A DNA stretch of 64,000 nucleotides from Candidatus Omnitrophota bacterium (GCA_903884815.1 CAISGE010000023.1:252-64251), one strand, 5' to 3'. Positions 35,227 through 59,060 are shown, counted from the first letter of the stretch. Numbers and translations: made by a program. The notes: generated by a model from the sequence alone, not told the origin.

Positions 35227-35655
35227 CTATTTCCCCAGAAGTGATCGGGCAAGACATTTCAAAACATCGATCTGCGTGACGATCCCCACAAGCACCCCAT
35301 CACGGCCGACGATCGGAACGCAGCCGAACTTGTCCCGGACCATGATATCGACCACATGACCCAGGGTGTCTTCGGGACTCAGGACAACGGGGTCCTTCGA
35401 CATCACATGCTTCAGGATGAACCGGTCCATTTGCTCTCTGTCAAAGACATCCCCCTCTTCGGTTTTCCGAGGCAACACACAGCGGAAAAGATCCCGAAGG
35501 GTGAACATCCCCACCACGCGCTTCTGGCTATCCACGACGGGAAGATGCCGGATCCCATGATGCCGGAACTTTGCCTCGACCGCGCTGAGAGGCTCCTCCA
35601 TACCGGCCGAGAACACTTTCGTTACCATGATCTCTTTAAGAAGGGGATTTTTCAT
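35227..35655 (-). CDS. CBS-domain pair protein
   Basis: Two CBS motifs; 142 aa. Confidence 0.7.
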   Translation of the reverse strand: MKNPLLKEIMVTKVFSAGMEEPLSAVEAKFRHHGIRHLPVVDSQKRVVGMFTLRDLFRCVLPRKTEEGDVFDREQMDRFILKHVMSKDPVVLSPEDTLGHVVDIMVRDKFGCVPIVGRDGVLVGIVTQIDVLKCLARSLLGK

Positions 35656-37481: not shown

Positions 37482-38245
37482 GACCGCACACGGTTCGTGA
37501 AAAGCACCTGAAGCGCCATAAAAAAATCACGGGCCTTGATCTTCTTCCCTTCGCTGGCCGTCCGGCCGTTGTAAAGGATCGGCAGCTCCGTGATCCGTAT
37601 ATTCTTTTTGGCGAGTTTTGCCGTGATCTCGGGTTCAAAATCAAACCGACTGGCACTTAATTGAAGGGATTTCATGAGACCTGCCGGAATAATCTTGTAG
37701 CAGGTTTCCATATCGGTTAGGCGGGTCCTAAAAAGAAGATTGGTGAGCCAAGTCAGAAAGAGATTGGCCATATAGTTCGCGAGAGCCATCCCTAGAGGAC
37801 GGCGATTGCCGAGAAAGCGGCTCCCGTAGACTACCTCCGCCGAACCTTTGAGAAGAGGAGCCAAAAGACGTGGAAGCTCCGCGGGGTCATATTCAAAATC
37901 CGCATCCTGAACGACGATTACATCCCCCTGGGCCTGCTCCAAACCGCGCAAAATGCTATAACCTTTTCCACGGTTGACTTCGTTCCGCAGCACATGGATC
38001 CGGCCCATCGTATCCTGCTGATTTAAAAGCCGCGCGATTTCATAGGTCCTGTCGCGGCTGTGATCATCCACCAGAATGATTTCATACGGCACCGGAAAAG
38101 AAACCTTCAGGATCTTCTCGACCAATTGCTGCAAGGTCGGCGCTTCATTGTAGGCTGGGATAATGATCGATAGCTTTTCCATTGCTATGCTATATCGTCC
38201 TTTTTCAGAGGCACTAAACCCACAAAGACCGTTCTGTGGGACCAT
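37478..38245 (-). CDS. GT2 glycosyltransferase (polyprenol-phosphate sugar synthase, DPM1-like)
   Basis: IIIPAYNE and VDDHS(R)D motifs. 4-nt overlap with the upstream gene. Likely start at MEKLSIII (38182). Confidence 0.8.
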   Translation of the reverse strand: MVPQNGLCGFSASEKGRYSIAMEKLSIIIPAYNEAPTLQQLVEKILKVSFPVPYEIILVDDHSRDRTYEIARLLNQQDTMGRIHVLRNEVNRGKGYSILRGLEQAQGDVIVVQDADFEYDPAELPRLLAPLLKGSAEVVYGSRFLGNRRPLGMALANYMANLFLTWLTNLLFRTRLTDMETCYKIIPAGLMKSLQLSASRFDFEPEITAKLAKKNIRITELPILYNGRTASEGKKIKARDFFMALQVLFTNRVRS

Positions 38246-38299: not shown

Positions 38300-38773
38300 A
38301 TGCAAAACACAACTTCCGTCATCCCAAAACAGCCGCAATCCCTACTCGCCAGGATCCTCCACTTTTTCTTCTATGCGAGTCTTTTGGGGATCCTCTTTGT
38401 TTCAAAGCTCCCTTCCGCCACCGGCCCTATTCTAGTCTTTAAAAAAAATTTCCTGGCAGGAGCTGAATCTTTTTTTCGTTTTCAAGACCCGGGTCTCCCC
38501 TACGCAATATTCAAAACCGGTCTCGCCCGTACTGGAGGAACCGCAACCTTTCTCACCGATAGGCCTTACGATCCCAAGGACCCGGCCGTCGAGCAGCTTC
38601 AGGCCGCCCAAGGAAGTTTGGCGCCACTTCTCTTAAATCCTCTTCCGACCGAGAACAAGGCGTTCATCTTCTGCTCCCGGGAGGTGATTGCGCAGGCCCG
38701 GATGCAAGGAACCGGTTATCGGCCTGTCGTGATCCTGGCAGACGGAAAAATGATCGCGGAGAAAATAACGTGA
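38300..38773 (+). CDS. Hypothetical membrane protein
   Basis: One TM; no recognisable motifs. Confidence 0.3.
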   Translation: MQNTTSVIPKQPQSLLARILHFFFYASLLGILFVSKLPSATGPILVFKKNFLAGAESFFRFQDPGLPYAIFKTGLARTGGTATFLTDRPYDPKDPAVEQLQAAQGSLAPLLLNPLPTENKAFIFCSREVIAQARMQGTGYRPVVILADGKMIAEKIT

Positions 38774-40215
38774 ACGCTCTTGCGCCGCTCTTAATTCCCG
38801 CCTTGTTAGGCTATTTTACTCTGGCACTCTTGCTACGCCGCATACCTCTCCGCTGGAAACCCCTGTTTCTCCTGGCTGCCGCGATCCCCACGGGATTCGG
38901 GATCTGCTCCCTGATGCTCTTTTTTTCCTTGTGGGCCGTTCCTTCTAAGTCTATGGCCCTCTCTGTGTCTTCAGGTCTCGCTATCACCCTGTTGCTCGGA
39001 GGCTTTCTCTTGCGGCAATATTCCAAAAGAACATCCCCGGCTCCCTCCGCGGTCGAACTGATCCGCCAGAAATTCATCGCGAGTATGCCTAAGGACAGAG
39101 GAGCCATTTTAAAGTTTGTCCTATGGGTTATTAGTCTTTTGATTTTTCTCGTCACTCTGTGGAGCGTGATCCAGTTCTTTCTCCTTTCCGTATCCACCAA
39201 CATCACGGGAGGCTGGGACGCCCGTTATATGTGGCTACTCAAAGCCAAGTTCATGTTCCGTTCCCCCGAAGCGTGGCAGGACATGTTCTCCCCCCTCCTT
39301 TCATGGTCCCACACGGACTACCCGCTTCTTTGGCCGGGAACTCTTGCCTGGGGTTGGAACTGGATGGGCCAGGAATCCCTGCTTTGGCCCCCCTGGGCGT
39401 CTCTAGGCTTCTACCTCTCTTGCGCCATGATCTTGGTCTGGTATTTAGGGACCGAAGTCTCTCCTCTTGCTGGAGGATGGGGAGGAACTTTTTTCCTTCT
39501 TCTGATCCCTCCTCTTTTCTGGAGCATTCATCTCTACACCGATCTGCCGCTTGCTTTTTTTATAACGGCTGCGACCCTGCTACTGCTCGTCGCGCTTCGA
39601 TCAGGACACTCCCGACTTTTTCTGATATCGGGGTTGATGGCAGGGTTGGCAGCATGGACCAAGAACGAAGGGCTCCAATTCTGGGGAATTACCATTCTAC
39701 TGCTCGCGAGCATGAAAATTCTCAGCAAAAGAAGCGCGCCCCACGAACCCACTTTCCATCTTTCTCCGTTTTTATGGGGAAGCTGTTTACCGCTCGTCAC
39801 GGTTTTGATCTTTAAAATATTTTTTGGAAAAAGCGGCGAATACCTAGGCCCAGAACACTCGCTCGGAGACATCTTCGCGCGGATCTTCTCGGCAGGATCA
39901 GAGACCGGGTTGATCCTTCTCTCTTTCGTGAGGCATTGTGTGGATTTTGCGAGCTGGAAGGGACTTTGGATTTTCTTCTTCACGGCCTGCCTTGTGTTTT
40001 TTTTCAAAAAAAACAGGCGCCGCTATACCGGGATACTTCCCACCTTGGTAGCTTTGATCAACTTCGGTTACGTTACCGCTTTCCTCATATCTCCAGCCGA
40101 TCTGAATTGGCATCTCGGGACTGCCTTGGAGCGGCTTCTCATCCATACCGCCCCCCTGGCCCTTGTTTTCAGCTTTGAGATACTGACGTTCAGAAAGACT
40201 GCAATCCAGAAATAA
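38770..40215 (+). CDS. Polytopic membrane protein, probable GT-C-type glycosyltransferase
   Basis: 481 aa with about 11 TM helices and aromatic-rich periplasmic loops. Divergently paired with the DPM1-like GT2 gene. Family not firmly assigned. Confidence 0.35.
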   Translation: MNALAPLLIPALLGYFTLALLLRRIPLRWKPLFLLAAAIPTGFGICSLMLFFSLWAVPSKSMALSVSSGLAITLLLGGFLLRQYSKRTSPAPSAVELIRQKFIASMPKDRGAILKFVLWVISLLIFLVTLWSVIQFFLLSVSTNITGGWDARYMWLLKAKFMFRSPEAWQDMFSPLLSWSHTDYPLLWPGTLAWGWNWMGQESLLWPPWASLGFYLSCAMILVWYLGTEVSPLAGGWGGTFFLLLIPPLFWSIHLYTDLPLAFFITAATLLLLVALRSGHSRLFLISGLMAGLAAWTKNEGLQFWGITILLLASMKILSKRSAPHEPTFHLSPFLWGSCLPLVTVLIFKIFFGKSGEYLGPEHSLGDIFARIFSAGSETGLILLSFVRHCVDFASWKGLWIFFFTACLVFFFKKNRRRYTGILPTLVALINFGYVTAFLISPADLNWHLGTALERLLIHTAPLALVFSFEILTFRKTAIQK

Positions 40216-40283
40216 AAAACGGGCAGGCCGCCTTCAAAGCGACCTGCCCGCCTTTAAATGTCTATTTCTCTTCCGTCCTCTGG

Positions 40284-40763
40284 CTAAACCCCGCCGCGCG
40301 CGGCCAATTCGCGTCTCGTGCGATTCTCGTTAAATCCCGTCCGGCCCAGGGTCTTTAACGCCAGATCATCCTTGTTCTCTCCGTTGTAGAAATCATACTC
40401 CATTATCGCCAGGATCCTAAGCATCGTCGTAACGTCCAGATTGACGACCATGGGATTGGTCCGAAGCGTTTCATCGATCTTGCCTACATAAAAGTCTGCG
40501 TTGTTCAGGATCGCGCTATTATCCCTGTTCTTGATGAGCAGGATCACTCCCTCTGCCGCAGCTCTTTTCTCGGTCTGGTTCATTCGTTCCCACAATGACA
40601 TGTTCCGGCTCAATTGGTTCATCAACTCGGGGAAGGCTAAACCCACTCCCGGCTTGTCCTCAACAACACTCTTTCCCGCCCTGTTACTCAAAAAACCATA
40701 GCATAACCCGACGACCAAAACACCCGCCACAGCCAGTGCGGCCCATCCAATACGCTTATCCAT
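40284..40763 (-). CDS. Hypothetical N-terminally anchored protein
   Basis: 159 aa with one TM. Confidence 0.3.
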   Translation of the reverse strand: MDKRIGWAALAVAGVLVVGLCYGFLSNRAGKSVVEDKPGVGLAFPELMNQLSRNMSLWERMNQTEKRAAAEGVILLIKNRDNSAILNNADFYVGKIDETLRTNPMVVNLDVTTMLRILAIMEYDFYNGENKDDLALKTLGRTGFNENRTRRELAARGGV

Positions 40764-40799: not shown

Positions 40800-41951
40800 T
40801 CACATATATTGTTTTAAAACGGTAATGGCCTCCAAAACTTGTCGGTCCACCCCGGGGGTCCCGTCCGGACTGTTCGAAATATCACGGTCCGGCGTCAGGC
40901 CAATCAGATCTATGACCCTCCCTGAAGGGGTGGCATATCTCGCGGTGGTCAATTTCATAGCGCTCGCGTCATCGAAAGGAACGACAGACTGCACCGAACC
41001 CTTGCCGAAGGTTTTAACCCCGATCAGTATCGCGCGCTTATGGTCCTGCATCGCGCCGGAAAAAACCTCGGAAGCGCTTGCGCTATACCCGTTCACAAGA
41101 ATCACCAGTTCAATATTAACGTAACTTCCATTTTGAGGCACGAAATATTCTTTACGTTGCTCGGCGATCTTGCTTTGGACAGATACGATCTTCTTTCCTT
41201 TCGTGAGAAAACGTTCCGCGAGCGCCACCGCCTGGGTCAGGAGACCGCCGTCATTATTCCTAAGATCGATGATCAGCGCTTTCATTCCCTGTTTCTTCAG
41301 GTCCGCGAGGGCTTTATCGACTTGAACGCTCGTGTTGTCCTGCCATCCCGAAAGGCGAAAGTAAGCGAGCGATTTCCCCACCATGCGGGCATCATGGACA
41401 GACTGGATCTCGATCTTTTGGCGCAGGATTTTGATATCCAGGATCTGCATGGAAGGCGGGCGGGAAAGGGTTACAAGTACCGGGGTGTCCACATCCCCCC
41501 GTAAGAGAGCCGATACATCCCCAACGGCTTTCTTTTCGATAGAAACTCCGTCAATTTTCAAAAGAATATCGCCCGCGAGAAGTCCGGCTTTTTCGGCGGG
41601 CTTCCCGGGTTCGACGGCCTTGATCACCACCTGTTGGTTGATCATCTCCAGAATGGCGCCGATGCCCGCATATTCGCCTTTGATCTGGATCTGGAGCAAC
41701 TTGAATCGTTCGGGCTCAATGAAATCCGAAAATCGGTCCAGGGACCCCAACATGCCTTTCATGGCCTTGTAAAGAAGCTGGCGGGGAGTGACATCACCGA
41801 CATAGGCCTCGGTGATGACGCCTACGCCTTTTGAAAAAAGTTTCAATTCCTCAATGATCCAGCCATCCCCTTCCGCAAATGCCACCGTGAGAGGAAGCAC
41901 GAAAAGCAACAGAAGACCCGGGATCAGGAAACGCCGAAGGATTCTTCCCAC
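40800..41951 (-). CDS. ctpA: Carboxy-terminal processing protease (S41, with PDZ)
   Basis: Signal peptide, PDZ domain (GDILLKIDG) and S41 catalytic region (IIDLRNNDGG…K). Confidence 0.85.
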   Translation of the reverse strand: MGRILRRFLIPGLLLLFVLPLTVAFAEGDGWIIEELKLFSKGVGVITEAYVGDVTPRQLLYKAMKGMLGSLDRFSDFIEPERFKLLQIQIKGEYAGIGAILEMINQQVVIKAVEPGKPAEKAGLLAGDILLKIDGVSIEKKAVGDVSALLRGDVDTPVLVTLSRPPSMQILDIKILRQKIEIQSVHDARMVGKSLAYFRLSGWQDNTSVQVDKALADLKKQGMKALIIDLRNNDGGLLTQAVALAERFLTKGKKIVSVQSKIAEQRKEYFVPQNGSYVNIELVILVNGYSASASEVFSGAMQDHKRAILIGVKTFGKGSVQSVVPFDDASAMKLTTARYATPSGRVIDLIGLTPDRDISNSPDGTPGVDRQVLEAITVLKQYM

Positions 41952-43027
41952 CGTTTGATTACTCCTTTTTCGTCGAAAACTGCGGTGACCCGCAGCGATT
42001 GTATTTTGTGGCTCACCCGGGCGATCACCCGCGAGCTAAAAAAGTGCGACTTAAGCGTCAGAGTCCCCGTTTGGGCGACTGCCTCAAAATTGGAGCGGTC
42101 ATTATCATTTAAATAGCTTTCATTAGCAAGCACTTGAGGGACCGTCGAAAGCTCGTCAAACGCCTGATCGTCCGCAGTCCCCTCCACTTTGTCATGCCCG
42201 GCCCGGTAGGCAAGGATTTTATCGCAAAGGGATGGGAGAAAACCGAGCGCCGCTAGGACAGTCCTGGAGGCCGTGTTCAAATTTACCTGGCCTGCACTGT
42301 CCAGGGTGATATAGGACAGGATCTGCTGATAGATCCCGGGCTTCATGCCCTTAATCCATTGGAGCTCCGCCAAGGTCACTACTTTTCCATTCCGGGGGAT
42401 ATAACCCGGACTCAAACTCTGATAGTAGGTGCTTTCAGCCCCGAGGGGAAACGTGTCATCATCAGCATCCTCCCAGTCCCTTATCGAATCCACCAGCCCC
42501 TGAGCGTCATCCTTCGTTATGGATGCGGCTAACATGAAGAGGTTTCGCAGAACATCCGGCGATTTAATAAGGTTGATATTGATCTTACGCTCCTCATCCA
42601 TGACGCCATATTGAAGAGCCTCTCCCGACGCATGGGGCTTCCCCGCCGAAGTCGCCGGCTCAAGAATTACAGAAAAGGTACCATCCCCGACTTGAATTTC
42701 TTTAAACGCGGGTTCATTCCGGCTCCAACTCTGATTGAGAGCGTCAAACGGAAGGGGTTTCTCACGGAATTTCAACAGCACATAGATCGCCTTTTGAACC
42801 CCGGCCTCTCCGACGAGGCGTAACTTCTGACGGACCTCCAACCGCGACAAGACCTGAAACTTCTGTCGCACGGTATATCCCACGGTCAGAGTAAACATCG
42901 TGATCAGAATAAGCACAAAAAAACAAACAATCAGAATACTTCCTCTTTGGTTTTCAGAATCTCTTAAAAAAAAGCGTGTAAACAAGTGACTCCCCTTTTC
43001 CTGATTGATAGAAGCTCCGCCCGGCAC
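41924..43027 (-). CDS. GspK/PilX-like minor pseudopilin
   Basis: N-terminal hydrophobic segment after a QRGS motif and the helix-hairpin-helix motif VNLNTASRTVLAAL typical of GspK. 28-nt overlap with ctpA. Confidence 0.45.
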   Translation of the reverse strand: MPGGASINQEKGSHLFTRFFLRDSENQRGSILIVCFFVLILITMFTLTVGYTVRQKFQVLSRLEVRQKLRLVGEAGVQKAIYVLLKFREKPLPFDALNQSWSRNEPAFKEIQVGDGTFSVILEPATSAGKPHASGEALQYGVMDEERKININLIKSPDVLRNLFMLAASITKDDAQGLVDSIRDWEDADDDTFPLGAESTYYQSLSPGYIPRNGKVVTLAELQWIKGMKPGIYQQILSYITLDSAGQVNLNTASRTVLAALGFLPSLCDKILAYRAGHDKVEGTADDQAFDELSTVPQVLANESYLNDNDRSNFEAVAQTGTLTLKSHFFSSRVIARVSHKIQSLRVTAVFDEKGVIKRWEESFGVS

Positions 43028-43034: not shown

Positions 43035-43382
43035 TCAGACGATCCGCGCCTGGGAAGACTCGTTCGCCGTTTCTTTCTTTGCGGCAGGCGCTTTCATAGC
43101 CGCGATCTGCGTCGAAAGCTTGTCGACCTTTGCGGAAAGCTGATCGAGTTTTAAAGAGAGCTGATCGAAATAACGTTTCATGTATTTGTCCAGACCCTCG
43201 GGGCCGTAGATCCCCGCCGTATTCTCCATTTTCCGGTCCTCCGCAATATTCCAAGCAACGCCCAACTTCCGGACCGAAACGTCCTTATCGGAAGCTTCAG
43301 ATCCTGCCAACGCGACAGAGATCACACCTCCTGACACAAGAAGCATTAAAAAAAAAGCCGCAAAGTTTCGAAGCAACATCAT
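43035..43382 (-). CDS. Small secreted coiled-coil protein
   Basis: Signal peptide plus C-terminal coiled coil; 115 aa. Confidence 0.3.
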   Translation of the reverse strand: MMLLRNFAAFFLMLLVSGGVISVALAGSEASDKDVSVRKLGVAWNIAEDRKMENTAGIYGPEGLDKYMKRYFDQLSLKLDQLSAKVDKLSTQIAAMKAPAAKKETANESSQARIV

Positions 43383-43429: not shown

Positions 43430-46036
43430 TTACCGCCCGAGGTCTTGTTCTCGAAGTCTTTGACGATCAAGTTCGAAAACCCGGATGACCGTCCCGCCCT
43501 GAAGCGTCCCCCGGCTGACCTTCGGTTTGAAGAGTGAAAGTCCCTGACCTTGAAGATAATACAGTCTGAACAAGAGGGAACGGATAAGCCTCGCGTCGGC
43601 GAGCACGGAATATAAAGAACCTTGGTCCTCAAAAATAAGCGCAGAAATGTTCACGGCGTCCTTCTGAAACGCCTTCTCCTGGAGTTGCCCGTTTTCAACA
43701 TAGAACAAACGGGTGGGCGCACCCTGAATCCCCTTATCCGGAACAAAAACTACAGCCTCTTTTGTCGCCAGATTCACACGCAGACCGTTCCCGAATGAAA
43801 CAACGTCCCCTTCTTTCCGGGACAACGCGGCAACAGGCGTGTACTTAAGCCATTCCCCGGAAGTCTGGATGAGATCTCGAACGTATCGCGTTACAGAATC
43901 CCTTTCCAACATCCCCTCGTTGCCAGTTCCATTCTTTTTCTTCTGAGCCTGAAGACTTTTGGCTTTTCTGAAATCCCAGTTCGCGACAACGGTGACGGCA
44001 AGGTTTTGCTCCACCAGATCGTTATAGATCAGCAAGTATGAGGGGGGCACATCTCCGCGGCCGTGTGTTTTGTTCAGAAACTCTTCCTTCTGCTCCTGGG
44101 TCCAAGCCGGCGGCAGATTCCGAAGTGCTTCAGGACGGCTAAGAGGCGTGACCTTCAGGATCAGATCTACGGCCTCGGGGACATCCATCCCCCACCGCTC
44201 GAGAAGTTCGGGGGCATCATCGCCGCTGGTGTTAATCATCCGAAGGATCCCGGCGGCCTCCCTCTCGTCCTCCGCCATCAGGACCTTGGAAATCCAATAG
44301 GAAATATGCAAATGCTGGGTTCCGCCATCGACGATGACGCGCCGATGCGCGATCCCAGTGATAAAATAACCAGGCGGCCACCAGCTGTCCACGATCGCAT
44401 TCTCGGGGGTTTTCGCCCTTACATCCGTTAACGCTTCATACCAGACGTCATCCATGATCGGCCGTATCGCCATCGCTACAATATGTGCGGTTATGAGAAG
44501 TAAAGGCGCAAAAATAAGAACGACTGGGATAACCGCGACCACACGGGATATCCTCACTTTCCCGGCCAGACCCGGCAGGATCCTGGGAAGCATGCCTTGA
44601 GCCCAAGCTACAAAACGCATTGCAGCAAAACCGGAAAAGATCGCGAGGGGCAACACAAAGAGCACCGAGAATCGTTCCGTTTTAATGGACAACATCAAAA
44701 TTGGAGCCGAGAAACACAAGAAAAAGAGGAACCGGAAACGCTCCGCGGGATCCTGACGTTTGAAGACATAAAACCCTTCCCACAAAAAGCCCACCACGGC
44801 GATCGCGAACGTCACGTAGTTGCCGGTCAAAAAGATAAGTTTTCGAAGTGTGATACTCCCGGCTTCACCGACGGTCAGGAAAATATTGGGCCAGAGATCA
44901 AAATCCGCGAGCGAAAATTTATTAATGGCAAACCAATCCCGGTTCAACGAATCGATCAAAACCTCCGGGGTTAAAAAGATGGACGCCGCGGCCAGCCATC
45001 CCAAAACATAGATCCCTCCGAAGAGGAGCATTCTCTTTAAAAGATCGGACTTTGCGGTTCTTTGAAGGGCCCACAATCCAAGCGCCCCTCCGAGAAGACT
45101 TGCTGGGATAAGAACTCCAATGAAGGCCCAACCCGGCCAAAACATAGAATAAAGCCCTGTCATAAGCGAAGCTCCCAGGATCCCCGGCCAAAACCATTTT
45201 TTGTCATGAAGCCCATGGAAAACAAAGATGAGGATCAAGATCGGAAAGATATAATTATAGGGATCCGTGTCATACCATCCCAATGCACTCCTCTGTATAA
45301 AGATTGGAGAAAAGAGGATCACCGAAAGGCCGATCACACTCGCGACAAATGGGAGCCTGAGGACCTTCCCAAACCAGGCGTAAATCGGTATTATTAATAA
45401 AGTCAACAGCAGAGGAAAAAACCCAAGGGTTTTCATAAGATCTGCCTGGGGCTTGAAGAACCGGACAAGCTTATACCAATAGAGTCCCAGGTAAGGATGA
45501 AAAAGGATCTCCGTCAAATGGCCGTGCGGCGCTTCACGGAGCGGCTCAAGATATTTCCCGCCACGTTGCAACTCGGCGATCCGTCCCGTCTGAAGCAGCT
45601 TTTCTGTTTGGCCAAAAAAATAGTAGGGATCCGCTTCAAGCAGATAGTGATATCCCCCCCCCGTCCGAACGTTGGTGATGTTCAAAAGGGTGCTCTTCAC
45701 GGTCCTTTCATAATTCTCATGATCGCCAGATTTAAGATTTTGAACTTGCAGATCTGTCAGCCTCTCTCTTTCGGAGATTGGAAGCTTTGAAAATTGCTTT
45801 TCGACGGCAGAACGGACCTGCGCCCTTAGGCCTCGATCCACGATCTGGCGGGCGATAGAATCCTGAGAGCGAAGTGACACGGATGGACCGCCGTGAAGGG
45901 AATAAGTACGAAAATAGATGGCCAAAAAGGCGAGCACGAGTAGGATCAGAATTTTTTTCATCGGAAATGATGCAGACTTCGAATGTGGCATGGTCGCAAC
46001 AGACTTCCCCTCTTTAAAAATCTTTGTGTTCCTCAT
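43430..46036 (-). CDS. STT3/PglB/AglB-family oligosaccharyltransferase homolog with variant WWPPGY motif
   Basis: About 13 TM helices followed by a periplasmic domain beginning SWWPPGYFITGIAHRRVIVDGGTQHL (compare C. lari PglB [25 protein letters not shown]). EL1 loop LLEADPYYFF matches STT3 HEFDPYFNYR. Confidence 0.65.
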   Translation of the reverse strand: MRNTKIFKEGKSVATMPHSKSASFPMKKILILLVLAFLAIYFRTYSLHGGPSVSLRSQDSIARQIVDRGLRAQVRSAVEKQFSKLPISERERLTDLQVQNLKSGDHENYERTVKSTLLNITNVRTGGGYHYLLEADPYYFFGQTEKLLQTGRIAELQRGGKYLEPLREAPHGHLTEILFHPYLGLYWYKLVRFFKPQADLMKTLGFFPLLLTLLIIPIYAWFGKVLRLPFVASVIGLSVILFSPIFIQRSALGWYDTDPYNYIFPILILIFVFHGLHDKKWFWPGILGASLMTGLYSMFWPGWAFIGVLIPASLLGGALGLWALQRTAKSDLLKRMLLFGGIYVLGWLAAASIFLTPEVLIDSLNRDWFAINKFSLADFDLWPNIFLTVGEAGSITLRKLIFLTGNYVTFAIAVVGFLWEGFYVFKRQDPAERFRFLFFLCFSAPILMLSIKTERFSVLFVLPLAIFSGFAAMRFVAWAQGMLPRILPGLAGKVRISRVVAVIPVVLIFAPLLLITAHIVAMAIRPIMDDVWYEALTDVRAKTPENAIVDSWWPPGYFITGIAHRRVIVDGGTQHLHISYWISKVLMAEDEREAAGILRMINTSGDDAPELLERWGMDVPEAVDLILKVTPLSRPEALRNLPPAWTQEQKEEFLNKTHGRGDVPPSYLLIYNDLVEQNLAVTVVANWDFRKAKSLQAQKKKNGTGNEGMLERDSVTRYVRDLIQTSGEWLKYTPVAALSRKEGDVVSFGNGLRVNLATKEAVVFVPDKGIQGAPTRLFYVENGQLQEKAFQKDAVNISALIFEDQGSLYSVLADARLIRSLLFRLYYLQGQGLSLFKPKVSRGTLQGGTVIRVFELDRQRLREQDLGR

Positions 46037-46070: not shown

Positions 46071-46781
46071 ATGGAACCTAAAATTCTAATCATCGTTCCG
46101 GCCTTCAATGAGTCGGGATCCATCGCAAGGCTTATCAAAGAGATCCGCACCTCCCTACCTCAAGCCGACCTTGTCATCATCAACGATGGCTCCCGTGACC
46201 TCACAGAAGAAGAGGCCACGAAAGCCGGTGCTTTGGTCGCGACATTGCCCTTCAATCTCGGGATCGGAGGGAGTGTCCAGACGGGTTATCAGATTGCATT
46301 TGAACAAAATTATGATGTCGCGGTCCAGATCGACGGCGACGGTCAGCATGACCCCGCTTATGCCGCAGAGTTGATCCAACCCGTGCTAGAGGGCCGCTTG
46401 GACTTATGCATCGGCAGCCGATTCATGGACGGCCCCTCCTCAGAAAATTTCAGGTCCACCCCCCTCAGACGCTTCGGGATCAGGTTCTTTTGCCGTCTCC
46501 TGGGAGTATTGACGGGGCTCCAACTGACGGACCCGACCTCGGGATTCCGGGCAGCCAGCAAAGCGCTCATCAAACATTTTGCGCATTATTATCCGGTGGA
46601 TTTCCCGGAACCTGAAACCATTAAGATCGCTCAACGCCACAGTGCTCTGGTCGGAGAAATCCCTGTACGCATGCGAGAGCGACAAGGCGGCCGGTCTTCC
46701 ATACGTTATTTCACGACTCTTTATTATATGGCCAAAGTCACACTGGCCATTCTGATCGACATGCTCAAGAAAAACCCCTAG
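46071..46781 (+). CDS. GT2 glycosyltransferase (DPM1/dolichyl-phosphate glucosyltransferase-like)
   Basis: IIVPAFNE and INDGSRD motifs. Confidence 0.8.
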   Translation: MEPKILIIVPAFNESGSIARLIKEIRTSLPQADLVIINDGSRDLTEEEATKAGALVATLPFNLGIGGSVQTGYQIAFEQNYDVAVQIDGDGQHDPAYAAELIQPVLEGRLDLCIGSRFMDGPSSENFRSTPLRRFGIRFFCRLLGVLTGLQLTDPTSGFRAASKALIKHFAHYYPVDFPEPETIKIAQRHSALVGEIPVRMRERQGGRSSIRYFTTLYYMAKVTLAILIDMLKKNP

Positions 46782-46791: not shown

Positions 46792-47154
46792 ATGCAGCCC
46801 AAAACGTTCGCGCTCATCATGACAGCATTTATTCTGATCTCTGTTATTAATCTTATCCGACGTCAAAAAATGACTTTCAAATACGCCCTTGCCTGGCTCA
46901 CATCCTGCACCCTCGTGATCATTTTGACGATCCAGGATTCGTGGATCGGAAGCCTCGCGGAATGGGCCGGTTTTGCCCTGACAAGCAATTTTATCTTCTT
47001 CCTGCTGCTTATCTTCGTGATTTTTTTCAGTCTCCTGCTGACCATCCACATCAACGAGCAGAACAGCAGGACAGAATCCCTCGCTCAGGCGCTTGCGAAG
47101 CTGGATCATCGTCTTAAGAAACTCGAAAAGGAAGGATCCTGCAGAGGCCACTAG
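46792..47154 (+). CDS. Small 4-TM membrane protein (DUF2304-like partner of GT2)
   Basis: 120 aa immediately downstream of the GT2 gene with a C-terminal amphipathic helix. Confidence 0.35.
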   Translation: MQPKTFALIMTAFILISVINLIRRQKMTFKYALAWLTSCTLVIILTIQDSWIGSLAEWAGFALTSNFIFFLLLIFVIFFSLLLTIHINEQNSRTESLAQALAKLDHRLKKLEKEGSCRGH

Positions 47155-47318: not shown

Positions 47319-48134
47319 TTATTTTAACTGGAAGGGATTGCTGGTAGTTGTAGGATTTGTGTTTTCGGAGGATACGGGAGTAGCTGTCTCTTCAGAGAAA
47401 AAACTGGAATCCTGGGATTCCTTGACGGTGTTTTCAACATAAGGTTCGGCGGGACCTTCCTCCTGTTTGATCTTGGAGATCTCCCCTCCTCGAAGCACCA
47501 ACTCAAGATAAGATGCCAGATCTTCCCGGCCCATGCTCCTTAGCTTCGAGATGGACTGCAAAGTCAACGGTGATTTCCCCATCTGAATATAGGAAAGCCC
47601 GAGGGCGTAATAAGCCTCCGGGAAATCGGGGAAATGGTCGATCGTTTTTTGAAAATATTCTGCCGCTTCTTCCGGCCTCTCCTGAGTCGTCAGCGTAAAC
47701 CAACCAAGTCCGAAATAGGCCTTAACATACTGAGGGTCGACTTCGAGTGTTTTTTTGAAATACTTTCCGGCCAGACCGGGATTGTTCGCCGGCCCCGCAT
47801 AAGTAGAGGCGAGGTTGAAAAGAGCATCGGCCAGATTGGGATCGATCCGAAGGGCCTGCTGAAAGGACCCTATGGCACTTTGAATCGATTGATTCTGCTC
47901 CAAATAAATCGTTCCAATCAGGTTGTAGATCATCGCCTGGTTAGGATCCTCATCAAGAGAAGACTTCAAAACGGCGATCGACTCGTCGTAATTCCCCGCG
48001 GTAAAGGAATCCATCGCACGCTGGTAATCCTCACGGGAAATCGCCGCCCATGAAACATGGCCGCACAAGAGGCAAAGCCCCACTGCCAGGGCAAACACTT
48101 TCATATCACAAACTCTTAGTCCCTTGGATATCAC
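47319..48134 (-). CDS. TPR-repeat lipoprotein; last gene of the T2SS/ATPase operon
   Basis: Signal/lipobox (LLCGHVS) plus about 6 TPR repeats. Overlaps PilO2 by 29 nt. Confidence 0.6.
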   Translation of the reverse strand: MISKGLRVCDMKVFALAVGLCLLCGHVSWAAISREDYQRAMDSFTAGNYDESIAVLKSSLDEDPNQAMIYNLIGTIYLEQNQSIQSAIGSFQQALRIDPNLADALFNLASTYAGPANNPGLAGKYFKKTLEVDPQYVKAYFGLGWFTLTTQERPEEAAEYFQKTIDHFPDFPEAYYALGLSYIQMGKSPLTLQSISKLRSMGREDLASYLELVLRGGEISKIKQEEGPAEPYVENTVKESQDSSFFSEETATPVSSENTNPTTTSNPFQLK

Positions 48135-48720
48135 TGATATTCTCCGAAGCGATCAAAATACGTGAAATATCAAAGGTGCACTTGGTGATTTCAGAACCCT
48201 TGGACTTGGGGCCCATGGTATAGCCTTCGACCTGAAAAAGGTAATCGGATTGTTCCAGAAGGTTAATAAAGGAGAGGACGTTCCCCAGCTTCCCTTCGCA
48301 GTCAATGCTGGTCTTATAGACCCGAAAATTGGACTTCTCCTCCACGGCCCCTGGCCGCGTGTTGGTCACCGTCACCGATTGCTGCCCCGCAAGGGTCTCG
48401 ATCTTCTTGAGAAGCGCCGCGACGATCTGCTCCTGCGTCATTTCTCCGGTATCGAGATAAGTGCTGTATTTCGAATACTCCTGCAAAATCCCCTCACGGA
48501 AAGAAACGACCCGTTTGCTGCGCCGGAGACTCTCCTTCTGGGCTTTGCCCTCTGCCTCAAGGTTTTCCATTTGCGACGTAAATGGACCGATCATGAGCCG
48601 GTCCATCAGGGCGAAAGCCAGAAAGGTCGCTGCCACAATAAAAAGAACCCTGCTTTTGCCGCTCAGTTTTGAGAAGATCTCTTCGATGTTGAAGTTAATC
48701 TCTTTTTTTCCTTTAGCCAT
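48106..48720 (-). CDS. PilO/GspM-like alignment protein
   Basis: N-terminal TM, coiled coil and periplasmic ferredoxin-like domain; 204 aa. Confidence 0.5.
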   Translation of the reverse strand: MAKGKKEINFNIEEIFSKLSGKSRVLFIVAATFLAFALMDRLMIGPFTSQMENLEAEGKAQKESLRRSKRVVSFREGILQEYSKYSTYLDTGEMTQEQIVAALLKKIETLAGQQSVTVTNTRPGAVEEKSNFRVYKTSIDCEGKLGNVLSFINLLEQSDYLFQVEGYTMGPKSKGSEITKCTFDISRILIASENISDIQGTKSL

Positions 48721-48724: not shown

Positions 48725-50299
48725 TCAAAATCCCTTCGCCAGAACGCAATCGATCACAAAATCCGCAACATCGTCCTTGCCTTCCTTACGAGACTTTGTT
48801 TCTTTGGTCTCGACCTTGCTGAAATAATTGGACTGCATGAGCTGTGTCACAAAAGCAAAAACACGCGACATGGAAGCAGCCGTCCCCGCGATGGAGACAT
48901 TCCCCTCGCTGCTGTAATTCACCTGGGAAAGATAAAGATCATCTCCGATAAACCCGTTGATCACATTGAGCACCGTAAGCTCTTTCCCGCGACTTTCGAT
49001 CAGCTTCTTCACGATGCGGTTCTTGGTGGATACGACCTCCAGGCGCTTGGCCTCTTCGCCGAATTTCTCGCTGACCTGGTCCAGCTTCTGGTTGACAATT
49101 TTTCTGAAATAGATCTTACTGCCCATGATCAGACTCGCCAAAAGAAAGACCGCCATGATCAGGATCCCGAGCCCGAGGATGTCGCGACTCGATTCCCGGA
49201 CCCGTCGCCTCAGCTTCAATTCCGGCAGAAGCAGATTGACCTTTGCCTGATCCGAATGTGCCAGCACCGAAAAGATCTCAAAAAATGAAAACTGAGGCGC
49301 CTGCTGGACGATCCCCATCACAGACTGGCTAACATTAAAATACTTCCTGTAATCAAAACTTGAAACCTCGATCTTTCCGAAATACGGAGAATCTGGTTTC
49401 CTAAACTCTTCCTCAAGAGCAACGCTACTTTCGGTAAAACCGGTAACCCACAACCGCTCGACTTGCTGCCCCACCCCTTGATCATGATAGGCGCTGATGG
49501 AACGATTCAACTCCTGGGTAAAGTCATTCCGCGCCTGCTCGGGATTCTTCTTCAAGGCGGTCGCTCCCACGGGGATATTGCGCACAAAAACAACCTGGCT
49601 CCCGTCGATCACCGTCAGCTCCGAATATTCCTCCCCCACATGAAGGCCGCCCAAAGCGCCTTTTAATGGAGCTCCTTTCGCAGCCTCGATGTAAGTTGTT
49701 GCCATGCAATCAGATGCGATAACTACTTTTTCAGTCTGGAGCCGAGCGCCTTGAAAAATGGCGGCCAGGCGATCCGCGATCTTCCGGTTGACGATAAAAA
49801 GAAGAACGCTCGTAAAATGCTGAACCAGGGACTCGAGGCACACGAAATCGATTACGATCTCATCGCGCCCGTACGGAGTAAAACGGCCGGCCTGAAGATC
49901 GATGATCTTCGAGACTTCTTCTTTTTCTGTCGAAGGAATATCCACGTTCTTGAAGATGAATTGCTTGGAGGGAATAAGGCAAAGCGCCTGCGTCGGAACC
50001 ACCTTGCGGGCCTGGCAATAGAGCAGCAGGATGTGGGAGATCTCGGCGTCCGTCTTTTTAGAAACATCCTCGGCCGCCACGCCTTCAATGAGAAAACCGC
50101 CCGGGCCCATTTGGCCATGCCCGATCTTGAGGATCTCGGAACCCAGAGACACCACTAAGGTCACGGAGGGTGCGGAAAATTTCATGAACTTCAAAAAACT
50201 CTTGCTCGGCTCACCCGGCATGCTTGTTCTCCTAGCCCCTGCACTCTGTTTCATCCCGAACACGCGCCTCCCGTGGGCATCGGGATCATCCGAACCCAT
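48725..50299 (-). CDS. PilM-PilN (GspL-like) fusion protein, second copy
   Basis: Actin-like PilM domain, TM helix ILGLGILIMAVFLLASLIMG and a PilN-like domain. Likely start MKQSAG (50254), giving a 4-nt overlap with gspJ. Confidence 0.6.
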   Translation of the reverse strand: MGSDDPDAHGRRVFGMKQSAGARRTSMPGEPSKSFLKFMKFSAPSVTLVVSLGSEILKIGHGQMGPGGFLIEGVAAEDVSKKTDAEISHILLLYCQARKVVPTQALCLIPSKQFIFKNVDIPSTEKEEVSKIIDLQAGRFTPYGRDEIVIDFVCLESLVQHFTSVLLFIVNRKIADRLAAIFQGARLQTEKVVIASDCMATTYIEAAKGAPLKGALGGLHVGEEYSELTVIDGSQVVFVRNIPVGATALKKNPEQARNDFTQELNRSISAYHDQGVGQQVERLWVTGFTESSVALEEEFRKPDSPYFGKIEVSSFDYRKYFNVSQSVMGIVQQAPQFSFFEIFSVLAHSDQAKVNLLLPELKLRRRVRESSRDILGLGILIMAVFLLASLIMGSKIYFRKIVNQKLDQVSEKFGEEAKRLEVVSTKNRIVKKLIESRGKELTVLNVINGFIGDDLYLSQVNYSSEGNVSIAGTAASMSRVFAFVTQLMQSNYFSKVETKETKSRKEGKDDVADFVIDCVLAKGF

Positions 50300-50853
50300 T
50301 TACGATGATTCATTTCTTTCGTCTCAATTGTAATCTTAACGGTCTCGGGAAAACAATCTTTATTCCACTGAGACACCCATCGATAATCTTTAGCCCTGGA
50401 ATCATAGGTATAATACTCCAGTGCAAAAGAGATCACACGATCGAGGATGGAATCGGATGTCCTCGGCAGTTTTTTCGCTGCCGTAAGGACCTCTTCGAAG
50501 GCATATTTTCGGGATATCACAGTACCCGCTTTGGAATCAAACACGTATTGGAAATAGACGGGCACCGGTGGTACCGACAACCGAGTTCCGTCACTGCCTA
50601 GGGTCGCAAAAAAAAACTCGGTCTGGTTCCCCTTCATGGCCCACTGGGGGTCATGAAAAGCATTACGAAGGTCTCCGGTGAGCCGCTCCCCCCAAAGATC
50701 CAACTTCCATTCACCGCGATCCTTAGAGGCGCGCGTCCAAAGGCGGAGACCTTGAGCAAACGTGGCATAGATCGCAGTGCCCAGCGAGGCCGTAATCACG
50801 ATCACCACGATCATTTCAACGAACGTAAACCCCTTAGCCCTTCCAATCCGCAT
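50251..50853 (-). CDS. Minor pseudopilin GspJ/PilW-like
   Basis: Prepilin signal MRIGRAKG|FTFVEMIVVIVI; 200 aa. Confidence 0.55.
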   Translation of the reverse strand: MRIGRAKGFTFVEMIVVIVITASLGTAIYATFAQGLRLWTRASKDRGEWKLDLWGERLTGDLRNAFHDPQWAMKGNQTEFFFATLGSDGTRLSVPPVPVYFQYVFDSKAGTVISRKYAFEEVLTAAKKLPRTSDSILDRVISFALEYYTYDSRAKDYRWVSQWNKDCFPETVKITIETKEMNHRKWVRMIPMPTGGACSG

Positions 50854-51250
50854 AAGGAACCCTCAGATAAAAAGTCCGTTTTAGAAAACGACTCGAACCA
50901 GAGCTTCCCCAGGAAATCGACGCAACCCCTTCCATCAAATAGGCGTCGGGACCTATTTCGTGAAGAGTCATGTCGTACTGATAGGTCCGGTCATCTCCAA
51001 GAAGCGTCCCGCTGTCCTGCCGCTTCTGAAATTCCTTCCCCTTCTCAAGAACCTCCCGTCCAAGCTCCCAAATTTTCCCCTCAAGAAGTCGTTCCGCCTG
51101 ACTTGAGCGTTCGATGACACTCAAAGCTGAAAAGGAATTTAAAAAAACACGCTGCACCGAAACGATCCCCACCGCAAGTATGACCATACTGAGGATCAAT
51201 TCGACAAGGGTGAAGCCGTTGCGACCGCAGGGCCTTATCATCGGCGACAA
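50834..51250 (-). CDS. Minor pseudopilin GspI/PilV-like
   Basis: Prepilin signal …GRNG|FTLVELILSMVIL; 138 aa. Confidence 0.55.
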   Translation of the reverse strand: MSPMIRPCGRNGFTLVELILSMVILAVGIVSVQRVFLNSFSALSVIERSSQAERLLEGKIWELGREVLEKGKEFQKRQDSGTLLGDDRTYQYDMTLHEIGPDAYLMEGVASISWGSSGSSRFLKRTFYLRVPYADWKG

Positions 51251-51259: not shown

Positions 51260-51718
51260 CTACTTTTTAGCTTCGGCCGCGACGACCCAGTTCACGATAT
51301 CATCCTTCGTAGCGTCCGGCTTAGGATCCTTTCCAAGTGAAGAAAGGTCATAATCATGCGGCCGGTTCGTTCCGGGAGACTGGTATTGATAGGGCCTTCC
51401 CCAGGCATCCACCGGCATTTTTTCAAGGTAGGGGCCATTCCAATTCTCCGGAATGGGCGTGGTCGTCGGTTTTTGGAGAAGGGCGAGAAGTCCCTGCTCG
51501 GTCGAGGGCAAGAAACCATTGTCCAACTCATAAAGTTTCAGCGCCGTGGGAATATTGACTTCAATATCGGTTTTCGTGGCAACCTGACGCGCTTGATCCG
51601 AACGGCCGGCGAGCCGCGGCACCACCATGGCTGAAAGCGTCGCAATGATGATCACCACTAAAATGATCTCGATCAGTGAAAATCCACGCATAGCCCTTTT
51701 AGATGAGTCCATTCTCAT
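51260..51718 (-). CDS. gspG: T2SS major pseudopilin GspG
   Basis: G|FSLIEIILVV signal, LDNGFLPSTEQGLLAL and DAWGRPYQYQSPG motifs matching the GspG consensus (LDNGRYPTTEQGL; DPWGNPYQYRSPG). Confidence 0.85.
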   Translation of the reverse strand: MRMDSSKRAMRGFSLIEIILVVIIIATLSAMVVPRLAGRSDQARQVATKTDIEVNIPTALKLYELDNGFLPSTEQGLLALLQKPTTTPIPENWNGPYLEKMPVDAWGRPYQYQSPGTNRPHDYDLSSLGKDPKPDATKDDIVNWVVAAEAKK

Positions 51719-51734: not shown

Positions 51735-52955
51735 TTAGGAAACAATGGCATCCATACTGAAGACTGGCAAAAGGATCGCGATCGCCACAAGACCCAAGGC
51801 CACTCCGATCACCAGGATCGTGAGAGGCTCGATGAGATGGGTCATGGACTGGGTATGATCCTCCACCTCCTGTTCATACCAATCTGCGATATCGCCGAAA
51901 GACTGCTCCAGGCGCCCGGTTTGCTCCCCGATCAAAAGGAGATGGATCGCGAAAATCGGAAAAGTCCCGAAACTCTTCAGCGACTCGCTGAGGCTCGCCC
52001 CCTGCTCCACCCGCTGCTCCGCCTGTGTGAGATCCTCTTTCATGGCCTCGTTGGAAACCGCGGGAATCCCGGTGCGGAGCGCTTTCAAAAGGGGAACGCC
52101 CCCTTTGATGAGAATTTCCATGGACCGGGCAAACAGCGCGAACTGCGCCATAAAAAGAATTTTCCCGATGCCTGGCAGCTTCATTTTCATACGATCCCAA
52201 TGAAGACGGTTCTCCGGGGCTTCAAGGCGCTTACGAAGCCATATCGCGAGTACCGCCGCCACTCCCAAAATCATTAGACCATAGTGCTGAAAAAATCCGC
52301 TCACGCCGATAAGCAACCGGGTTAAAAGAGGAAGCATTTGTCCGAGATCAGAAAAAAGTTTTGCAAATTTCGGGACCACATAGGTCAGAAGAAAAAAAAG
52401 TGCGGCGCTGCCGAGCAGAACAATAAATGCGGGATAGGTCAGCGCATTTCGAACCTTCCGGATGGTCGCCGACTGCTTTTCGGAACACTCGGCAAGACGC
52501 TGGAACGCATCATCGAGATGTCCCGTATGCTCCCCCAATTCGATCATTGCGACCGCAAAGGATCCGAAAGTTTTTGGATATCCGGCCATCGCCATGGAGA
52601 GAGGATTTCCCTGACGGACCTGTTCCTTTAAGGCCTCGAGGACGGGCTGAAGCCGCGGATTATGGGATTGTTCTGCCACAAGCACCAAGGCGGGAAGGAG
52701 TGGAACGCCGGATCTCAGAAGGCGTCCAAATTGTCTGTAAAAAACGGCAACGGCATGTCCCTCCCCCTTAAAGGAGGAGACCGCCATCTCCCCAAAGACA
52801 TGATTTTGTTTCCCCTCAGAATCCTCCTCGATCAACTCGACCGGGATAAGTCCCATCTCGTTGATCTTTTCGATCGCTTCATCCTTCGTTTCCGCAGAGA
52901 GGAGCCCCTTGACAAGTTCCAACCCCTTTTTGGCCTGATATCTAAACTGCCTCAT
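51735..52955 (-). CDS. gspF: T2SS inner-membrane platform protein GspF
   Basis: 406 aa with two GspF repeats and three TM helices. Confidence 0.85.
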   Translation of the reverse strand: MRQFRYQAKKGLELVKGLLSAETKDEAIEKINEMGLIPVELIEEDSEGKQNHVFGEMAVSSFKGEGHAVAVFYRQFGRLLRSGVPLLPALVLVAEQSHNPRLQPVLEALKEQVRQGNPLSMAMAGYPKTFGSFAVAMIELGEHTGHLDDAFQRLAECSEKQSATIRKVRNALTYPAFIVLLGSAALFFLLTYVVPKFAKLFSDLGQMLPLLTRLLIGVSGFFQHYGLMILGVAAVLAIWLRKRLEAPENRLHWDRMKMKLPGIGKILFMAQFALFARSMEILIKGGVPLLKALRTGIPAVSNEAMKEDLTQAEQRVEQGASLSESLKSFGTFPIFAIHLLLIGEQTGRLEQSFGDIADWYEQEVEDHTQSMTHLIEPLTILVIGVALGLVAIAILLPVFSMDAIVS

Positions 52956-53599
52956 GGTTTTCCAAAGCTCGTTTCAAAAAAGGCGGTCAGCAATTTTCTG
53001 TTCTCCGCATTCATCGGAAGAAAGATCGCTCCGACGAGAACCGACCGCTCCCCTCCCTGCACAGCTGCCTCCGCAGAATAGACCACACGAATGATCTGGA
53101 CCTTGGCGATAAAGTCTTCCGGACCTTTGCCACCCGTCAAAACCGTTTTGATCTCAAGGATGCTCCCCGGCTCAAGAACATCCGCCAGTGAAAAATCGCC
53201 CCACTCTTTTTTGAAATCCTCAAAAGACCTCTGCGGATCAGCAACCGAAAAACAGACCCCCCCCGGGCTGAAATCTTTCTCGTGTCCCTGAAACTCGAGT
53301 TTTAACAAAGGACCTATTAAGGGAAGAAGGAGACGCGAGCTCCCCCCATATTCAACGACATGGAACGCCAAGGGAGAATTGGAAGCAATACGGCGACACT
53401 GCCGTCCCTTTTTAAAACGGACGAGCAACATTTCACCCAGGTTTTCTTTTTGACGTTGATTCATCATTACTTCGGTCATTTCGGTCATGGAAAAACCCAT
53501 ACCACTGATACTTTCAGCGGCATCCTCCTCCGTCTCGGAAAAAAGTATCCCTTTAATAAGATCCGATCCCTTCTTGGCCTGGTATCTGAATTGTTTCAT
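52952..53599 (-). CDS. GspF-N-terminus-like segment fused to a PilZ (c-di-GMP receptor) domain
   Basis: N-terminal 45 aa, MKQFRYQAKKGSDLIKGILFSETEEDAAESISGMGF, are about 60% identical to the GspF N-terminus. PilZ motifs RQCRR (RxxxR) and DFSPGG (DxSxGG). C-terminal 120 aa paralogous to the GspE C-terminal PilZ (EFQGHxxDxSxGGxxFSVxDP). Confidence 0.65.
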   Translation of the reverse strand: MKQFRYQAKKGSDLIKGILFSETEEDAAESISGMGFSMTEMTEVMMNQRQKENLGEMLLVRFKKGRQCRRIASNSPLAFHVVEYGGSSRLLLPLIGPLLKLEFQGHEKDFSPGGVCFSVADPQRSFEDFKKEWGDFSLADVLEPGSILEIKTVLTGGKGPEDFIAKVQIIRVVYSAEAAVQGGERSVLVGAIFLPMNAENRKLLTAFFETSFGKP

Positions 53600-55917: not shown

Positions 55918-58286
<2,369 letters not shown>

Positions 58287-59045: not shown

Positions 59046-59060
59046 ACAAAGTTCCTCTCT

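Follow-up and report, generated by a model that had tools for sequence, protein, structure and literature searches.

The aspartate of the WWD motif of oligosaccharyltransferases (OSTs) helps to form the pocket on which the universal N-x-S/T rule of N-glycosylation depends, and its mutation is reported to inactivate both yeast Stt3 and Campylobacter jejuni PglB. Pilin-specific transferases encoded next to pilin genes are known as well, namely, the O-oligosaccharyltransferase TfpO/PilO and the GT-C arabinosyltransferase TfpW of Pseudomonas aeruginosa and PglL of Neisseria, which are of the Wzy_C/O-antigen-ligase type or belong to other GT-C families and form O-linkages; they are not known to include an STT3 homologue or an enzyme acting on the pseudopilins of type II secretion systems (T2SS). 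Archaeal AglB N-glycosylates type IV pilins and archaellins (PMC5131992) and is the closest functional parallel for an OST at work in a type-IV-filament system. Here, we describe an STT3/AglB/PglB-family GT-C glycosyltransferase of 868 amino acids, encoded on the minus strand at positions 43430 to 46036 of a 64,000-nucleotide stretch of DNA from a Candidatus Omnitrophota bacterium (GCA_903884815.1 CAISGE010000023.1:252-64251), the whole of which is referred to below as the window. The gene lies in a T2SS-like operon, and its product belongs to a large clade that has discarded the WWD aspartate with the catalytic residues kept. On balance, judging from sequence comparisons, we lean toward the view that it is an active OST-like enzyme with a remodeled +2 pocket that would serve the secretion/pseudopilus system.

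STT3 family membership and the rewritten pocket motif

The protein was matched above the gathering scores by both relevant Pfam hidden Markov models (HMMs), namely, PF02516 (STT3), with 40.7 bits against 24.5 over residues 129 to 508, and PF21436 (STT3-PglB_core), with 26 bits against 23 and only profile positions 5 to 55 of 131 covered. The NCBIfam equivalogs scored far under their cutoffs (37.3 bits against 450 for the best model, the archaeosortase-associated STT3 TIGR04154, and 18.1 bits against 1300 for the PglB model NF050801), the protein being a divergent family member rather than an orthologue of a characterized enzyme. An AlphaFold2 model calculated with 71 homologues as input, with a mean pLDDT (predicted local distance difference test) of 92.7 and a pTM (predicted template modeling score) of 0.91, has the GT-C fold with a multihelix membrane domain and a C-terminal periplasmic domain. 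When this model was compared with solved structures by Foldseek, C. lari PglB (6gxc/5ogl/3rce) came first, with an E value of 2.2e-17 and a target TM-score of 0.65 to 0.70, followed by Archaeoglobus fulgidus AglB and then yeast and human STT3; ranks 1 to 21 were all occupied by PglB, AglB, or STT3, and other GT-C enzymes (DPY19, AftA, and ArnT) ranked below the OST subunits. Thus, the gene product is a member of the STT3 family by HMM and by fold, as had been claimed in a preliminary description of this DNA, which had also named a failure of the STT3 profiles to match as the outcome that would speak against it. The exact sequence of the window protein was not on record in a lookup, and the existing database label for its relatives is "STT3 domain-containing." The start codon is ambiguous (ATG at 46036, 45991, or 45961), and the alignments of homologues start at about residue 25 to 30.

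Like C. lari and C. jejuni PglB (3RCE, 5OGL, and 6GXC), its best structural match, the protein is a single-subunit GT-C enzyme with a periplasmic C-terminal domain, a TIXE-type Glu, and a DGG motif. Unlike PglB, to which it is just 13 to 15% identical, it has WWPPGY instead of WWDYG, a helical insertion after the motif, a candidate DK-type motif in place of MI, and some 90 additional residues of helical external loop 1 (EL1), and its gene is located outside a pgl-type glycan cluster. The family profile matched archaeal AglB (A. fulgidus AglB-L; 3WAJ, 5GMY, and 7E9S) with 76 bits in a profile-to-sequence comparison in which all catalytic motifs were aligned, whereas AglB keeps WWDYG and reads N-x-S/T and the window protein is bacterial; aglB genes are not known from within operons for pili or secretion. 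With TfpO, TfpW, and PglL, the likeness is one of logic, in that a periplasm-facing, lipid-donor-dependent transferase is encoded beside the genes of the filament that it modifies. Neither AglB nor these pilin transferases represent an STT3 of this motif type within a T2SS operon of bacteria.

Motifs were aligned residue by residue to solved OST subunits by using phmmer and the family profile, and conservation was counted over the ungapped sequences among 204 relatives pooled from a 90%-identity search and a 50%-identity representative search. The EL1 motif EADPYYFF (residues 134 to 141; 45614-45637), present as given in the preliminary description, was aligned on EFDPYF of STT3A and GNDPWY of A. 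fulgidus AglB (AfAglB) and carries the first DXD-type catalytic residue, Asp136, found in 195/195 relatives. The second DXD motif, in GWYDTDPYNY (45251-45280), was aligned on GSYDNE(G) of STT3A and GFNDHH of AfAglB, with Asp256 in 198/199 and Asp258 in 199/199 relatives; its Y-D-T-D is presumably the same second DXD motif as in PglB. TVGE (residues 388 to 391; 44864-44875), a TIXE/SVSE-type motif of external loop 5 (EL5), falls on the EL5 NGE of AfAglB, and its Glu391 was found in 203/203 relatives. The lipid-phosphate-binding Arg455 in KTERF (44669-44683), which stands next to the clade-specific Thr453 and Glu454, was likewise present in 203/203 and falls on the Arg of AfAglB QNRF, which we take to be R426. 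Arg426 of AfAglB is close to the phosphate site (PMC8342417). The catalytic and lipid-phosphate set (D136, D256/D258, E391, and R455) is thus intact in about 200 relatives, down to 28% identity, and the catalytic acids, whose possible absence had been raised in the preliminary description, are all present and near-invariant. This bears on the idea that the protein is a catalytically dead STT3 relic retained as a structural membrane part of the secretion apparatus, which would suit its position within a machine operon and the loss of the signature motif; however, invariance of the catalytic and lipid-phosphate residues in about 200 sequences at 28 to 76% identity is not expected for a nonenzyme, and we consider this idea highly improbable.

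The variant of the Ser/Thr-pocket motif occurs in SWWPPGY (44366-44386), where WWPPGY falls column for column on the WWDYG motif of STT3A, STT3B, and AglB and directly on WWDYGY of human STT3A and WWDYGH of AfAglB. Both Trp residues and the Gly are kept, while Asp and Tyr are each replaced by Pro, so the canonical motif is lacking. The preliminary description was correct about this replacement but had placed the motif string at the beginning of the protein; it is actually located mid-protein, in the segment SWWPPGYFITGIAHRRVIVDGGTQHL (residues 551 to 576; 44309-44386). The same segment contains DGGTQ (44315-44329), the counterpart of the DGGK motif defined in PMC8342417, in which D570 and G571 are invariant, position 573 is T or S instead of Lys, and the same DGG form is shared by the WWD outgroups. 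The WWDYG and DK or MI motifs together make up the Ser/Thr pocket (PMC8342417). A candidate DK-type motif, WDFRKAKSL (43952-43978), assigned by pattern (D-x-x-K-x-x-x-L) and position only, sits 135 residues beyond the WW motif and fits D-x-x-K-x-x-x-(M/I/L); W687, F689, and K691 each reach a conservation of 90% or more. The WWD outgroups share this motif, W687-D-F-R-K691-A-K-S-L695.

Among the 204 relatives, motif position 3 was occupied by P (153), S (25), C (10), A (5), T (4), or D (4), whereas position 4 was Pro in 200/203 and the Gly at position 5 was invariant. Considering this pattern, it is the replacement of Tyr/Phe by Pro at position 4 that is under strict selection, whereas position 3 has been loosened and admits small residues without charge; hence, of the D-to-P change noted earlier, the clade-wide loss of Asp stands, but the more strictly conserved replacement is that at position 4. 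Asp at position 3 was absent from all 79 genome loci (GTDB species representatives), in which the motif takes the form WWPPG[YH] in 66, WWSPGH in 7, WWCPGH in 4, and other forms in 2. WWD[FY]G was found only in the most distant matches (P0083 to P0088, 22 to 28% identity), which have the same overall architecture and resemble the window protein in length, the ILRMLN helical insertion, DGG[ST]Q, W-D-F-x-K, and the C-terminal beta domain but differ in the motif and in being encoded in a glycan-biosynthesis or housekeeping context rather than a T2SS operon. A neighbor-joining tree placed all non-Asp sequences in one clade with the WWD proteins outside, and the named records of this clade were almost all Candidatus Omnitrophota, to which it is essentially confined. 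The family comprised 679 clusters at 50% identity (E value of 1e-30 or better), and a relative was encoded by 514 GTDB species genomes, a count whose scan pattern admits WWD forms too.

Only six columns discriminated between the two groups, being conserved within each and different between them (135, by D136; 453-454, by R455; 554-555, the motif itself; and 671), and four of the six lie in or beside named active-site/substrate motifs. Positions 453-454, for example, read T-E in the non-Asp clade versus G-V in the WWD outgroup. Such clustering is the pattern that a substrate change would produce. Read from these alignments, the Ser/Thr (+2) motif has been rewritten clade-wide, from WWD[YF]G to WW[P/S/C]PG, with co-switched active-site neighbors, which is consistent with the altered specificity or noncanonical activity that had been predicted earlier. 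Alternatively, the protein could be an ordinary general N-linking OST of Omnitrophota that reads N-x-S/T via the two Trp residues and the DK-like motif, the motif change being neutral or a matter of fine-tuning and the operon place inherited. The conservation of W552, W553, and W-D-F-x-K, the intact catalytic set, and the JGI annotation of relatives as dolichyl-diphosphooligosaccharide-protein glycosyltransferase would all fit such an enzyme; yet, besides the inactivating effect reported for mutation of the WWD aspartate, the Pro at position 4 is under selection too strict for neutral drift, and the residues flanking D136 and R455 switch along with the motif.

Linkage to a T2SS-like operon

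The gene order of the window recurs around homologues of 36 to 60% identity. To describe this linkage, the 79 genome loci were searched with the window proteins, and T2SS genes were counted within 10 kb; at least three T2SS-like genes were found in 32/35 loci with a full flank (at least 8 kb on both sides), versus none beside the four WWD-type outgroup genes, one of which is from an Omnitrophota metagenome-assembled genome (MAG) and three of which lie in clusters of glycosyltransferases and sugar-nucleotide enzymes. Two arrangements were observed, matching the two main subclades of the tree. In arrangement A, the window type, the STT3 gene is located within the operon, upstream of a gene for a 115-residue protein and GspK, while in arrangement B it faces the operon's 3' end in convergent orientation. 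In one locus (L001), the end of the gene for a tetratricopeptide repeat (TPR) protein, base 8001, coincides with the start of the STT3 gene, which runs in the same direction. As a control for mere gene-order inertia, the two sides of the gene were compared in arrangement B: open reading frames (ORFs) on the T2SS side had same-side homologues in 77% of the other B loci (median 88%), compared with 14% (median 6%) for ORFs on the opposite side. Thus, the linkage of the non-Asp STT3 gene to the T2SS-like operon is selectively retained, and the link to pseudopilins and secretion, at which the preliminary description had hinted, is strengthened. These data also bear on the ordinary N-linking OST in an inherited position. 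ATP-synthase genes are likewise syntenic with GspE, which would suit it; however, arrangement B conserves only the T2SS side, and the WWD relatives, including the one from Omnitrophota, sit in classical glycan clusters, and taking both sections of evidence together we regard that alternative as unlikely.

The operon runs on the minus strand. It begins with the GspE ATPase (53596-55908), in which HMMs detected MshEN, T2SSE, and PilZ domains and which scored 564 bits, slightly under the cutoff of 630, and continues with a 215-residue ORF without a Pfam match (52952-53599), GspF (T2SSF by HMM; 51735-52955), the major pseudopilin GspG (51260-51718; TIGR01710, 147.7 bits versus 88.85), and two prepilin-type proteins, a pseudopilin of 138 residues (50834-51250) and a GspJ-like minor pseudopilin (T2SSJ; 50251-50853). 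N_methyl matches are present among the pseudopilins of this operon. The assembly platform is represented by a PilM-PilN fusion (48725-50299) and a GspM-like protein of 204 residues (48106-48720), and next comes the TPR protein, PilW/Tgl-like by HMM (47319-48134), whose gene adjoins the STT3 gene in the majority of loci under either arrangement. Beyond two divergent genes of the GT2 and DUF2304 families, the order proceeds with the STT3 gene, the 115-residue exported coiled-coil protein (43035-43382), which always follows the STT3 gene in arrangement A, and a GspK-like minor pseudopilin (41924-43027), which was matched by PF21687 with 61.9 bits and by the GspK model NF037980 with 100.3 bits, under its cutoff of 130. 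With GspG, GspF, and GspE matched on the other side, the proposed placement of the STT3 gene between a GspK-like pseudopilin and the T2SS/ATPase operon was borne out. An S41 (CtpA-like) PDZ peptidase of the same operon (40800-41951), syntenic in relatives, and a conserved protein of 159 residues (40284-40763), the final operon gene, precede a terminator-like hairpin with a 19-bp stem followed by a T-run (40215-40255).

No secretin was found between 40284 and 55908, and the GspD/GspC pair characteristic of a T2SS is missing from this stretch; the sole secretin in the window (3243-5078) is part of a second, pilus-like cluster. The STT3-linked system may use this same secretin jointly with the second cluster or may need none at all. 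The second type-IV-filament cluster (198-8887, minus strand) encodes PilC/GspF (198-1541), PilB/GspE (1528-3225), and the secretin, in addition to a PilO-like protein (5620-6165) and a PilM-like protein (6177-7763). About 16 related loci have a homologue of the 215-residue ORF in the corresponding position, and more distant loci have none. The hairpin at 40215-40255 lies between the convergent genes for the 159-residue protein and a 481-residue GT-C-fold protein and is likely a bidirectional terminator closing the operon; in a scan for sigma-70 promoters and terminators, counts were at background except for this strong hairpin.

Acceptor, donor, and proposed role

To look for acceptors, sequons were surveyed in the pseudopilins and the GspK, 115-residue, GspM-like, and TPR proteins, with 23 to 66 homologues each. 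Neither enrichment nor positional conservation of N-x-S/T was found in these operon protein families, and in GspG the sequon was depleted, with 24 observed versus 43 expected from composition. No Omnitrophota-specific conserved Asn context emerged in the operon proteins; the conserved Asn residues of GspG are presumably general features of PulG/GspG sequences. The 115-residue protein, found in 27 loci, has the conserved core GV.[WF]N[IM]A.DR...GG.Y.PEGLDKY, and its N-[IM]-A was considered as a noncanonical acceptor site but rejected as evidence because the Asn is replaced by Asp in two loci.

With regard to the donor, the two genes directly divergent from the STT3 gene, both on the plus strand, encode a GacI/PpgS/AglJ-like GT2 (46071-46781; PF00535, 63.9 bits), a candidate polyprenyl-phosphate sugar synthase, and a small DUF2304 membrane protein (46792-47154; PF10066, 67.6 bits versus 25.5), a putative GacJ/Rv3632-like activator of the GT2. 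The best NCBIfam model for the GT2 was PpgS, with 92.5 bits, below the cutoff of 370. The DUF2304 partner was thereby identified as had been proposed, and the order, GT2 followed by DUF2304, is that of the GacI/GacJ (PpgS/Rv3632) pair. In the GacI/GacJ paradigm, a polyprenyl-monophosphate (undecaprenyl phosphate) sugar is synthesized by the GT2, whose activity is enhanced by the DUF2304 protein, and then serves a GT-C enzyme outside the membrane (10.1101/180810). The pair flanks the STT3 gene in 24 arrangement-A loci and 0 arrangement-B loci.

Conceivably, the enzyme has switched to another donor and perhaps also to another class of acceptor, with a polyprenyl-monophosphate monosaccharide from the GacI/GacJ-like pair being transferred to a nonsequon protein residue or to a nonprotein acceptor such as a glycan or lipid of the envelope. 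Dolichol-monophosphate donors are known from euryarchaeal AglB, and the divergent position of the pair in those 24 loci, the presence of a separate GT2 for the other GT-C-fold protein, the T453/E454 switch adjoining the phosphate-binding Arg, the replacement of the DGGK Lys, and the fact that genes for lipid-linked oligosaccharide (LLO) assembly were not found nearby in the scanned parts of the window would all agree with such a donor. The crystal structure of AfAglB holds dolichol-phosphate at the catalytic site (PMC8342417). Nevertheless, the pair is missing throughout arrangement B, and in one WWD outgroup locus it also occurs beside PMT-type GT-C genes, indicating that it may serve the PMT_2-like enzyme; moreover, the D136/E391 pair is kept, and WWD outgroups of like architecture are fused to peptidyl-prolyl isomerases (PPIases), which points to protein substrates. 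We therefore think a changed donor quite unlikely. The fusions themselves were seen in three WWD-type outgroups (P0085, P0087, and P0088; L088 8001-11039), which carry C-terminal PPIase domains (FKBP_C or rotamase) and suggest periplasmic proteins that are unfolded or still folding as the substrates of the ancestral enzymes.

The reading that we favor, an active OST-like enzyme with a remodeled +2 pocket in the service of the secretion/pseudopilus system, could work as follows. Because the metal-binding, acceptor-carboxamide-activating, and lipid-phosphate-holding residues are kept, a catalytically competent GT66 enzyme of the GT-C type is predicted, which on the periplasmic face would attach a sugar or glycan carried on polyprenyl phosphate to a protein component of the machine or to its cargo, the possible targets being the pseudopilins, the 115-residue partner, and secreted substrates. 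The target would probably still be an Asn side chain, one not defined by the canonical N-x-S/T sequon. The retained D136/E391 pair favors an Asn carboxamide as the acceptor, such a pair being characteristic of carboxamide activation in the PglB mechanism. In the subclade of the window, the GacI/GacJ-like GT2 and DUF2304 proteins, together with the second GT2 and the GT-C-fold protein, may supply or extend the glycan via polyprenyl-monophosphate sugars. We infer that the enzyme is active, that its acceptor rule is unlike N-x-S/T, and that its targets are parts or cargo of the machine. A sharper version, in which this STT3 lineage is a dedicated glycosyltransferase of the T2SS/pseudopilus machine that modifies nonsequon sites, possibly with a single sugar from the GacI/GacJ-like monophosphate donor, is put forward only tentatively and appears somewhat doubtful.

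Several observations weigh against the favored reading. The geometry of the altered pocket is predicted from alignment, and both Trp residues and the DK-like motif are kept, so that Ser/Thr might still be recognized to some extent. T2SS genes are lacking in three full-flank loci and in most loci of the WWSPGH type. Immediately upstream of GspE, the window (55918-61161, minus strand) and two other loci (L001, 1-114, and L006, 18533-18541) whose STT3 proteins show 31 to 44% identity carry ATP-synthase alpha/beta-type genes, indicating that gene order in the phylum may stay conserved without functional coupling. In addition, no initiating phosphoglycosyltransferase, LLO-initiation gene, or flippase was found in the scanned parts of the window.

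The loci with no T2SS-like genes within reach were L022, L038, and L070 and, among the WWSPGH loci, L048, L053, L067, L077, L079, and L082. The clade members lacking T2SS neighbors may be paralogues that left the operon. Two distinct clade members (P0053 and P0063) were encoded in one MAG (tag HYZ84).

Omnitrophota are ultra-small bacteria, possibly predators or dependent on hosts, and very little is known of their surface biology. In full-text literature, including surveys of GT66, we found no paper naming WWPPG, none tying Omnitrophota to an oligosaccharyltransferase, none describing an OST acting on bacterial pseudopilins, and nothing on a non-Asp STT3 clade. A 2026 survey of complete Omnitrophota genomes treated T2SS and pilus genes but not STT3 (bioRxiv 10.64898/2026.06.07.730766). 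The combination of a rewritten motif and secretion-operon linkage suggests an undescribed kind of protein glycosylation. If the sharper version given above is true, it would provide the first example of an STT3-type enzyme whose acceptor rule is independent of the sequon or coded differently, as well as the first bacterial STT3-type enzyme with a tie to a type-IV-filament system. The non-Asp clade is a test case for how OSTs encode acceptor specificity and might yield enzymes for the glyco-engineering of noncanonical sites, while its stable T2SS-like linkage points to glycosylation as a built-in step of the Omnitrophota secretion/pseudopilus machine.

Second glycosylation module and other genes

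Downstream of the operon lies a second module composed of an AglJ/ArnC-like GT2 (37478-38245, minus strand), a protein of 157 residues (38300-38773, plus strand), and the 481-residue GT-C-fold membrane protein (38770-40215, plus strand), to which this GT2 is adjacent. The preliminary description had listed two DPM1-like GT2 enzymes and a GT-C-like membrane protein in this neighborhood. Both GT2 assignments stand, but the best NCBIfam models were PpgS and, for the present GT2, AglJ, each under its equivalog cutoff. The 481-residue protein itself had no Pfam match, although many of its homologues carry PF13231 (PMT_2) or PF02366 (PMT). A profile of its family gave no match among PDB sequences, and structure prediction and Foldseek were therefore used; the model (pLDDT 92.1) had GT-C enzymes as its first 31 matches, all with weak E values (0.014 or weaker). 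The GT-C label is suggested by the domains of homologues and the fold of the model, but not by a Pfam match of the protein's own or by strong E values. A natural fusion of a GT2 domain with the family of the 481-residue protein was observed (P0246, 745 residues), which supports a partnership between a polyprenyl-phosphate-sugar synthase and a GT-C enzyme in the second module.

In an arrangement-B locus with the WWCPGH motif (L006, 1-7841), the genes divergent from the STT3 gene encode a NeuB-like protein, a DegT-type aminotransferase, an epimerase/dehydratase, and a nucleotidyltransferase. This set resembles nonulosonic-acid or amino-sugar biosynthesis and may be a hint at the donor sugar in that lineage.

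Tandem paralogues on the plus strand (11266-13056 and 13213-15006; 596 and 597 residues, 55% identical) combine a hydrophobic N-terminal domain with C-terminal TPRs. They had been called TMTC-like, and the tandem duplication and the membrane N-terminal domain with TPRs were confirmed; however, HMMs matched the TPRs only, so the label reflects architecture alone, and the pair, 30 kb away and outside the conserved neighborhood, was excluded from the system. Directly downstream of the second GT2, a 609-residue protein (35652-37481, minus strand) combines an N-terminal metallopeptidase domain (Reprolysin_5/M10) with many TPRs, and a similar protein of 622 residues follows the GT2 in the context of P0007.

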